Below are positions 1 to 320 of a stretch of 64,000 bases of DNA, piece after piece. Source of the DNA: Escherichia coli (GTDB lineage Bacteria; Pseudomonadota; Gammaproteobacteria; Enterobacterales; Enterobacteriaceae); NCBI RefSeq assembly GCF_003334315.1, contig NZ_QOWR01000010.1; one strand, given 5' to 3'. Position 1 is the first letter of the stretch. Each line of letters opens with the position of its first letter. The translations under genes and the position numbers were made by a program. Under the pieces are notes generated by a model that saw nothing but the letters and a program-made list of their open reading frames with translations, had not been told where the DNA came from and did no database searches.

Positions 1-320
1 CTTGCGCGTCTTATCAGGCCTACAAATTCCCGCACCCTCCGTAGGCCGGATAAGGCGTTTACGCCGCATCCGGCAACAGTGCCAACTGCCTGATGCGACG
101 CTTGCGCGTCTTATCAGGCCTACAAATTCCCGCACCATCCGTAGGCCGGATAAGGCGTTTACGCCGCATCCGGCAACGGTGCCGACTGCCTGATGCGACG
201 CTTGCGCGTCTTATCAGGCCTACAAATTCCCGCACCCTCCGTAGGCCGGATAAGGCGTTTACGCCGCATCCGGCAACAGTGCCGACTGCCTGATGCGACG
301 CTCGCGCGTCTTATCAGGCC
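1..320. repeat. Tandem REP/BIME array, ~100-bp unit repeated about 3.2 times
   Basis: The unit cttgcgcgtcttatcaggcctacaaattcccgcacc...gtaggccggataaggcgtttacgccgcatccggcaac recurs at 1, 101, 201 and 301. These are typical enterobacterial REP palindromes. ORFs 2..193 and 93..293 lie inside it and are spurious. Confidence 0.9.

Follow-up and report, generated by a model that had tools for sequence, protein, structure and literature searches.

REP325 between yjdM and yjdN of Escherichia coli: identity of a 100-bp repeat array, its copy-number variation and a probable local role in gene expression

The array of 100-bp repeats at positions 1-320 of the window (the whole 64-kb stretch of E. coli DNA that was analysed) is the yjdN-proximal, promoter-distal end of REP325, a BIME-2-type cluster that fills the spacer between yjdM and yjdN. 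The array is not novel; it is a named element of E. coli, already catalogued, for which an Rfam family and an experimental literature exist. What is added here is a census of its copy number, a description of its alleles as strings of units and an age for the single unit. The explanation that we favour, and hold to be probable, joins this identity to a local mechanism, drawn from experiments in K-12, by which the array would stabilise the yjdM message and attenuate expression of yjdN, and to an evolution by whole units.

Anatomy and identity of the array

Tandem Repeats Finder reports positions 1-320 as one array with a period of 100, 3.2 copies, 97% matches and 0% indels (score 612), and a repeat search recovers three copies of 120 nt that begin at 1, 101 and 201, are spaced by exactly 100 nt and share 98-100% identity. 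The initial annotation had read this stretch as a REP array of 100-bp period with at least three complete units upstream of phnB/yjdN. Self-comparison bears out the periodicity, the Y/Z2 palindrome pairs with their GTAG/CTAC foot and stem mismatch bear out the class, and complete Y-l-Z2 units are present at 44-120, 144-220 and 244-320; the sole omission of that annotation was that it did not name the locus as REP325 or naRNA. The 100-bp unit is composed of an inverted Y-type REP, a 13-nt linker, a forward Z2-type REP and a C-rich linker of 17 nt, the consensus of which within the array is AAATTCCCGCACC(C/A)TCC. The Y palindrome measures 34 nt (e.g. 141-174) and the Z2 palindrome 36 nt (e.g. 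188-223), with the CTAC foot at the Z2 end. The features of the region are given below.

1-23, + strand: 3' arm of a Z2-type REP with its CTAC foot, truncated at the window edge; identical to 101-123 and 201-223
24-40, + strand: 17-nt tail-to-tail linker AAATTCCCGCACCCTCC, the 'U motif' of Qian et al. (name: PMC4550694); C-rich and G-poor on the transcribed strand
41-123, + strand: unit 1, with Y REP 41-74, 13-nt head-to-head linker 'l' 75-87 and Z2 REP 88-123 (pattern matches)
124-140, + strand: U linker, variant CCATCC, with 1 mismatch
141-223, + strand: unit 2, with Y REP 141-174, l linker 175-187 and Z2 REP 188-223 (pattern matches, unit comparison with K-12)
224-240, + strand: U linker (linker match)
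241-320, + strand: unit 3, the terminal edge unit (type E), with Y REP 241-274, l linker 275-287 and Z2 REP 288-320
321-383, + strand: unique spacer of 63 nt from the array to the yjdN start codon, with GAGG ahead of the ATG
384-827, + strand: yjdN (formerly phnB), VOC-family metalloprotein (NCBIfam NF007537, 323.9 bits against a cut-off of 122; RefSeq)
960-1748: phnC, downstream of yjdN and followed by phnD

At its opening the window holds only the 3' arm of a Z2 REP (the first 20-23 nt), the 5' arm being outside. At the other end the array stops 63 nt upstream of yjdN (phnB) and phnCDE, and this 63-nt spacer is retained as the right flank of every comparison locus. The array likewise lies between yjdM and yjdN, upstream of phnCDE, in RefSeq genomes, K-12 MG1655 among them.

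The Rfam family naRNA4 (RF02564) gave three full-length matches (1-77/77) on the + strand, with scores of 106.7-111 bits against a gathering threshold of 59.5. The best of these is the 77-mer of unit 2 (144-220; 111 bits), which is identical to K-12 naRNA2/naRNA4. The corresponding 77-mer of unit 1 (44-120) scores 106.8 bits and that of unit 3 (244-320) 106.7 bits; in the latter the Z2 loop is the variant CTCGCG and the CTAC foot is absent, being replaced by GCC. This type E unit closes every multi-unit E. coli allele examined, with GCCTCTC as the right flank. On the - strand the array reaches only 53-54 bits, and the much higher + strand scores thus indicate that the units are oriented like yjdM and yjdN. 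REP325 has been described as six Y-l-Z2 repeats joined by U motifs and apparently transcribed from the yjdM promoter towards yjdN (Qian 2015, PMC4550694). An Rfam search of the window also returned the sRNA sraL at 47698-47838 (153 bits) and SECIS_2, the bacterial selenocysteine insertion element, at 27147-27201 (87 bits), which are expected E. coli features unrelated to the array.

Both palindromes have the size and form of REPs, i.e. imperfect palindromes of 30-40 nt that form stem-loops, and the 34-nt Y and the 36-nt Z2 fold as hairpins. Hallmarks of REPs are a GTAG tetranucleotide at the palindrome foot and a conserved mismatch in the stem (PMC3333891). In the array GTAG stands 5' of each Y on the + strand and CTAC, which is GTAG on the - strand, stands 3' of each Z2 except the terminal one; the stem mismatches, AA/GC in Y and C/U in Z2, are found in all units. 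REPs are also extragenic and dispersed. Five further copies lie elsewhere in the 64-kb window with none expected, the array palindromes of the two REP types being observed 5 and 6 times in the window against 0 expected in dinucleotide-preserving shuffles, and a 1-kb query found a median of at least 23 places per E. coli genome.

The window holds other REPs as well. A second tandem BIME array, with a period of 113, 2.3 copies and 94% matches, occupies 29668-29930 between ORFs that end at 29665 (+) and 29969 (-). In it Z-type and Y-type REPs alternate, with head-to-head linkers of 6 nt and tail-to-tail linkers of 36 nt, and two of its units exceed the Rfam naRNA4 threshold on the - strand (71-79 bits). 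A single Z/Y REP pair is present at 40385-40462 (naRNA4 76.9 bits, - strand), and at 8102-8135 (+) a Y-type REP stands alone, with the same sequence as the array's Y REPs.

The architecture is that of BIME-2, with - strand Y REPs alternating in tandem with + strand Z2 REPs at a period of 100, where the assignment to types Y and Z2 follows from the Rfam naRNA4 (Y-l-Z2) match and from descriptions of REP325 (PMC4550694; Harris preprint). The array shares with the BIME-2 family the alternating inverse y and z2 REPs, the tandem copies conserved within a locus, the strain-variable number of those copies and the extragenic location (PMC3333891); variation in tandem copy number among strains was found at this locus in a sample of 59 genomes. 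It may differ in its linkers, which are the 13-nt 'l' and the 17-nt motif that Qian et al. named 'U' (unknown); the canonical BIME-2 motifs are S between REP and iREP, flanked by s, l or r, and U may or may not equal S. Compared with REP325 of K-12, the window has in common the position, the orientation, the 100-bp period, the Y-l-Z2-U unit, the terminal unit and the 63-nt right flank. The two differ in the order of units: with unit types denoted by letters, the K-12 allele reads A-B-C-B-D-E and the window ..C-B-E, without the 'D' unit (naRNA5-type, ATGG) before the terminal one.

We considered whether the U linker is private to REP325 and rejected this, K-12 genomes having 7 junction matches of which only 5 are in REP325; a linker of this type recurs in the BIME between mhpE and mhpT. 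The U linker is a feature of the BIME family, not of REP325 alone. In E. coli ES3 (locus L013, 1440-1580) the mhpE-mhpT spacer carries a Y-Z2-Y BIME with the tail-to-tail linker CTACAAATTCCCGCGCCATCCGTAG, which is nearly identical to the U motif, and K-12 possesses at least one junction-bearing locus besides REP325 and mhpE-mhpT.

Two other classes of repeat resemble the array. As in REPIN/RAYT systems, an inverted REP pair of the array can fold as one long hairpin (83 nt, -45 kcal/mol, z = -5.2), the GTAG foot and the stem mismatch are intact, and REP325 has been predicted by RAREFAN as a RAYT-associated REPIN. The array differs from such systems in that no RAYT gene is adjacent and in that its copies represent local tandem amplification and not dispersal. 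With CRISPR arrays it shares regularly spaced, short palindromic repeats in an intergenic location. A CRISPR array was rejected: both linkers, which would be the 'spacers', repeat in every unit, the palindromes alternate in orientation, and neither cas genes nor a leader are adjacent.

Upstream continuation and open reading frames

The initial annotation had also held that the array probably continues beyond the window start, and comparison with other genomes agrees. The yjdM-yjdN region was dissected in 18 complete E. coli genomes, and the array start always lies 14 nt past the stop codon of yjdM (18/18). In seventeen of them the array opens with a distinct edge unit that has a GTAAGCC foot and usually the Y loop CTCGCG, the exception being a single-unit ST131 allele whose first unit begins with GTAGGCC; this distinct first unit of the comparison loci is absent from the window. 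Positions 1-320 of the window are identical to the end of the six-unit array of strain Z142-1 (A-B-G-C-B-E), the closest allele found, with which the window shares the order ..C-B-E. For genome scans the result removes a candidate, and REP325 may be kept as a reference case, given that windows or contigs can break inside such repeats.

Over positions 1-1000 the window and Z142-1 differ at a single position, 755. The window has T at this synonymous site of yjdN and every close relative examined has C. The T755 variant is carried by none of 5,426 complete E. coli genomes, in which the best matches are 99.9% identical. The top-scoring match to window positions 321-20000, E. coli ES6 (NZ_CM184335.1, L004 2127-2383; identity reported as 100.0%), has only 2 units, A-E; this short allele may be a genuine large contraction or a repeat collapsed in the assembly.

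Positions 2-193 and 93-293 had been reported as six-frame ORFs and dismissed as artefacts of the repeat. Both exist on the + strand, the first with 63 aa and a TTG start and the second with 66 aa and an ATG start, and further periodic ORFs are found at 193-369 (+), 59-235 (-) and 159-329 (-). Taken together, the five range from 56 to 66 aa with ATG, GTG or TTG starts, and the supposition that they encode small arginine-rich proteins can draw on this and on one annotation: inside REP325 of E. coli ET625 (NZ_CP100941.1, L010 1231-1539) PGAP annotated a minus-strand pseudogene of a 'hypothetical protein', labelled 'frameshifted; incomplete'. We give the supposition practically no credence. The ORFs recur at the same phase of the unit and pass through frames 1, 2 and 0 in turn, because 100 is not divisible by 3, and gain or loss of a unit changes their frame. 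Single-unit alleles, which account for about 60% of strains, cannot hold them. No NCBIfam family matches any of the five (the yjdN control scored 323.9 bits), and RefSeq annotates no intact CDS in the array in 17 of the 18 dissected E. coli loci (K-12 and 16 others). The dismissal of the two ORFs is thereby upheld, and the ET625 pseudogene is a real-world case of the periodic, spurious ORFs that REP arrays create.

Copy number and age of the unit

For the census, the yjdM and yjdN flanks only were used as query, 59 genomes were sampled at regular intervals from the ranked list of 5,418 matching genomes, and unit counts were derived from spacer lengths. The counts were as follows.

1 unit: 36/59 genomes
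2 units: 4/59 genomes
4 units: 4/59 genomes
5 units: 4/59 genomes
6 units (includes K-12): 9/59 genomes
7 units: 2/59 genomes

Across E. coli the unit number of REP325 thus ranges from 1 to 7, with about 60% of genomes being single-unit (59 sampled). The Z2-U-Y junction occurs in 2,269 of 5,426 genomes (42%), which agrees with the 39% of sampled genomes that have two or more units.

Over 321-1500 only 99 records reach 99% identity with the window, the best at 99.9%. Ten of these were dissected, and their alleles include A-E, A-B-G-C-B-E, A-B-C-C-B-H-E, A-F-C-C-B-D-E and I-B-C-C-B-H-E. Several alleles at near-identical flanks show by comparison that the array gains and loses whole 100-bp units faster than its flanks gain substitutions, with the caveat that some of the short alleles could be assembly collapses.

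Among 100,044 species-representative genomes the exact 31-nt U-junction had no match, and a degenerate Y-l-Z2 pattern was located in the yjdM-yjdN spacer at four loci.

Escherichia whittamii: about 1.5 units, yjdM-yjdN spacer
Escherichia sp. E1V33: 2 units, yjdM-yjdN spacer
Pseudocitrobacter faecalis: 1 unit, yjdM-yjdN spacer
Pseudocitrobacter vendiensis: 1 unit, yjdM-yjdN spacer

The orthologous units of these four species score 89-105 bits against naRNA4. The presence of Y-l-Z2 in the same spacer of other species shows a single unit that is old and fixed in position, older than the genus Escherichia. Arrays of 4-7 units, the one of the window included, are a recent expansion in part of E. 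coli.

In Escherichia sp. E1V33 the ORF directly after yjdN (L015 1373-1807) is a putative PhnO, which suggests a locus without phnC-phnN. A weak 21-bp tandem repeat at 11978-12050 of the window (3.5 copies, 75% matches) is also present in this species (L015 2113-2185).

The same data could be read as an essentially neutral or selfish history, in which a REP doublet (REPIN) without a selected function was amplified locally by slippage, unequal recombination or strand exchange by RAYT (TnpA-REP), and in which the neighbouring genes would be affected only incidentally. The range of 1-7 units is what such a history would produce, as are the alleles AE, ABGCBE, ABCCBHE, AFCCBDE and IBCCBHE in strains with flanks that match the window at 99.9% identity or more. 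Variation in copy number is a general trait of BIME-2, and TnpA-REP catalyses strand exchange of BIMEs in vitro (PMC3333891); the GTAG foot and the stem mismatch that TnpA-REP needs for binding are intact in every unit, apart from the foot of the terminal Z2, and the stems have almost no compensatory change. We nevertheless regard a neutral history as unlikely, if the strongest of the competing accounts, for Y-l-Z2 has been kept at the exact site from Pseudocitrobacter to E. coli with invariant stems, which argues for retention. Moreover, deletion of the array has measurable effects on expression and growth in K-12, and REP325 is stable on plasmids (10.64898/2026.03.23.713779).

Predicted structure of the transcript and proposed effect on yjdM and yjdN

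In predicted RNA folds the REPs form separate hairpins or else pair up, Y with Z2, in a single long one, and the folding energy of a 340-nt stretch is -158 kcal/mol, far below that of shuffles (z = -7.8). Over an alignment of 18 sequences 99.3% of stem cells are paired and 18 of the 24 pairs are invariant; differences between units sit in loops and linkers, the stems being almost invariant. Support from covariation was sought and is essentially nil, with only 2 compensatory changes, both in paralogous REPs. The predicted hairpins are accordingly supported by conservation and thermodynamics, not by covariation.

The array is richer in C than in G (105 C against 78 G in 300 nt). Within the 20 nt made up of the U linker and the foot's TAC there are 10 C and 1 G, and the predicted folds leave this stretch unpaired, which would be compatible with loading of Rho, the link being our own. 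Intrinsic terminators were considered and rejected, as the hairpins lead into C-rich or mixed linkers without a U-run, and no site resembling an intrinsic terminator was found on the + strand within window positions 1-1000.

We propose that transcription from the yjdM promoter extends into the array, which would form the 3' UTR or the intercistronic region of a yjdMN operon, and that each REP in the RNA would form a stable, GC-rich hairpin. The series of hairpins would block 3'-to-5' exonucleases and so stabilise the upstream yjdM message, and it would also act as a chain of leaky, partly Rho-dependent terminators that lowers read-through into yjdN about ten-fold. The net effect would be a local tuning of the yjdM:yjdN expression ratio. 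As for evolution, the comparison shows an ancient single Y-l-Z2 unit that has grown into arrays of 4-7 units in some E. coli.

The proposal leans on experiments in K-12 (Harris 2026 preprint, 10.64898/2026.03.23.713779). On deletion of REP325 the yjdM/yjdN RNA ratio fell from about 35 to about 1, with yjdN up 8-10-fold, and on plasmids without the array yjdM mRNA was about 160-fold lower (10.64898/2026.03.23.713779). Transcript ends form a ladder inside the array, and under bicyclomycin read-through rose from 23% to 39%, an effect confined to the full array of 12 hairpins (10.64898/2026.03.23.713779). The strong predicted hairpins, the lack of U-runs, the C-rich unpaired linkers and the operon-like orientation seen in the window are compatible with this account and are not proof of it. 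The mechanism rests on one preprint, in K-12 and largely with plasmid over-expression. The preprint also reports that endogenous yjdM and REP325 RNA is very low, at about 1-2 copies per cell, that an in-vitro screen for Rho binding did not recover REP325 and that REPs as a class have no uniform effect on mRNA half-life (10.64898/2026.03.23.713779). A long array is evidently not needed for the minimal role of the locus, about 60% of E. coli genomes being single-unit.

The REP of malE-malF is a 3' exonuclease barrier, one case of operons that REPs stabilise or attenuate. REP325 resembles such operons in that co-transcribed, intercistronic REP hairpins favour the upstream gene over the downstream one. 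It differs from them in having up to 14 hairpins as against 1-3, in combining both roles in one element and in showing Rho dependence only with the full-length array. Attenuation of transcription associated with BIMEs, as well as REP-stabilised operons, is cited in the Harris 2026 preprint (10.64898/2026.03.23.713779).

A different function was assigned to the locus by Qian et al. (2015), who regarded the array as a cluster of genes for naRNA1-6, small structured RNAs that together with HU bridge distant, cruciform-forming REP DNA and thereby condense the chromosome. Every unit here is indeed a full-length, high-scoring naRNA4 match, and the DNA palindromes of the array could extrude as cruciforms. 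That study reported HU binding, a nucleoid decondensed by deletion of REP325 and rescued by plasmid-borne naRNA4, REP325-dependent 3C contacts and in-vitro condensation of DNA seen by AFM (PMC4550694). The later preprint, whose authors include the senior author of 2015, found no stable HU-cruciform-naRNA4 complex; in that work neither deletion nor over-expression altered the volume of the nucleoid, and Hi-C revealed no contacts between REPs (10.64898/2026.03.23.713779). Furthermore, RF02564 is not specific to this locus, as three other REP pairs of the window match it with 71-79 bits, and a dosage-dependent global role would, in our view, be hard to square with about 60% of genomes being single-unit. 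The HU/naRNA4 model of nucleoid condensation is contested, and we judge it very unlikely to account for the array.

The array may also be seen as a BIME-2 cluster of strong, transcription-independent sites of DNA gyrase binding and cleavage that manages supercoiling between yjdM/crfC and the phn operon. It has the alternating Y/Z2 architecture, and gyrase cleavage sites are over-represented in BIME-2, prefer Y-type REPs and give a higher signal when transcription is blocked (PMC6379681). Only some BIME-2 elements are cleaved, the named examples being sucC-sucB and tldD-yhdP, and yjdM, yjdN, phnA and REP325 are not mentioned in two supplementary files of that paper (PMC6379681). As the main explanation of this array a gyrase function thus seems quite improbable; a gyrase role is plausible for BIME-2 in general and would not be mutually exclusive with one at the level of RNA.

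Stabilisation of yjdM combined with attenuation of yjdN thus remains our preferred reading, and the census allows a tentative extension of it, somewhat more likely to fail than to hold, in which copy-number polymorphism of REP325 would be an evolvable 'dial' on the yjdM:yjdN expression ratio. In K-12 Rho-dependent attenuation was seen only when all 12 hairpins were present, and 2-4 hairpins did not give it; read-through into yjdN would therefore occur in strains with 1-2 units but not in those with 6-7 units. If this is true, the six-unit K-12 allele is a derived minority state, the properties of which are not general. A long array in part of the species, an old single unit and a fast turnover of units together favour a local element that is tunable and regulatory, or semi-neutral, over an essential global organiser of the nucleoid.
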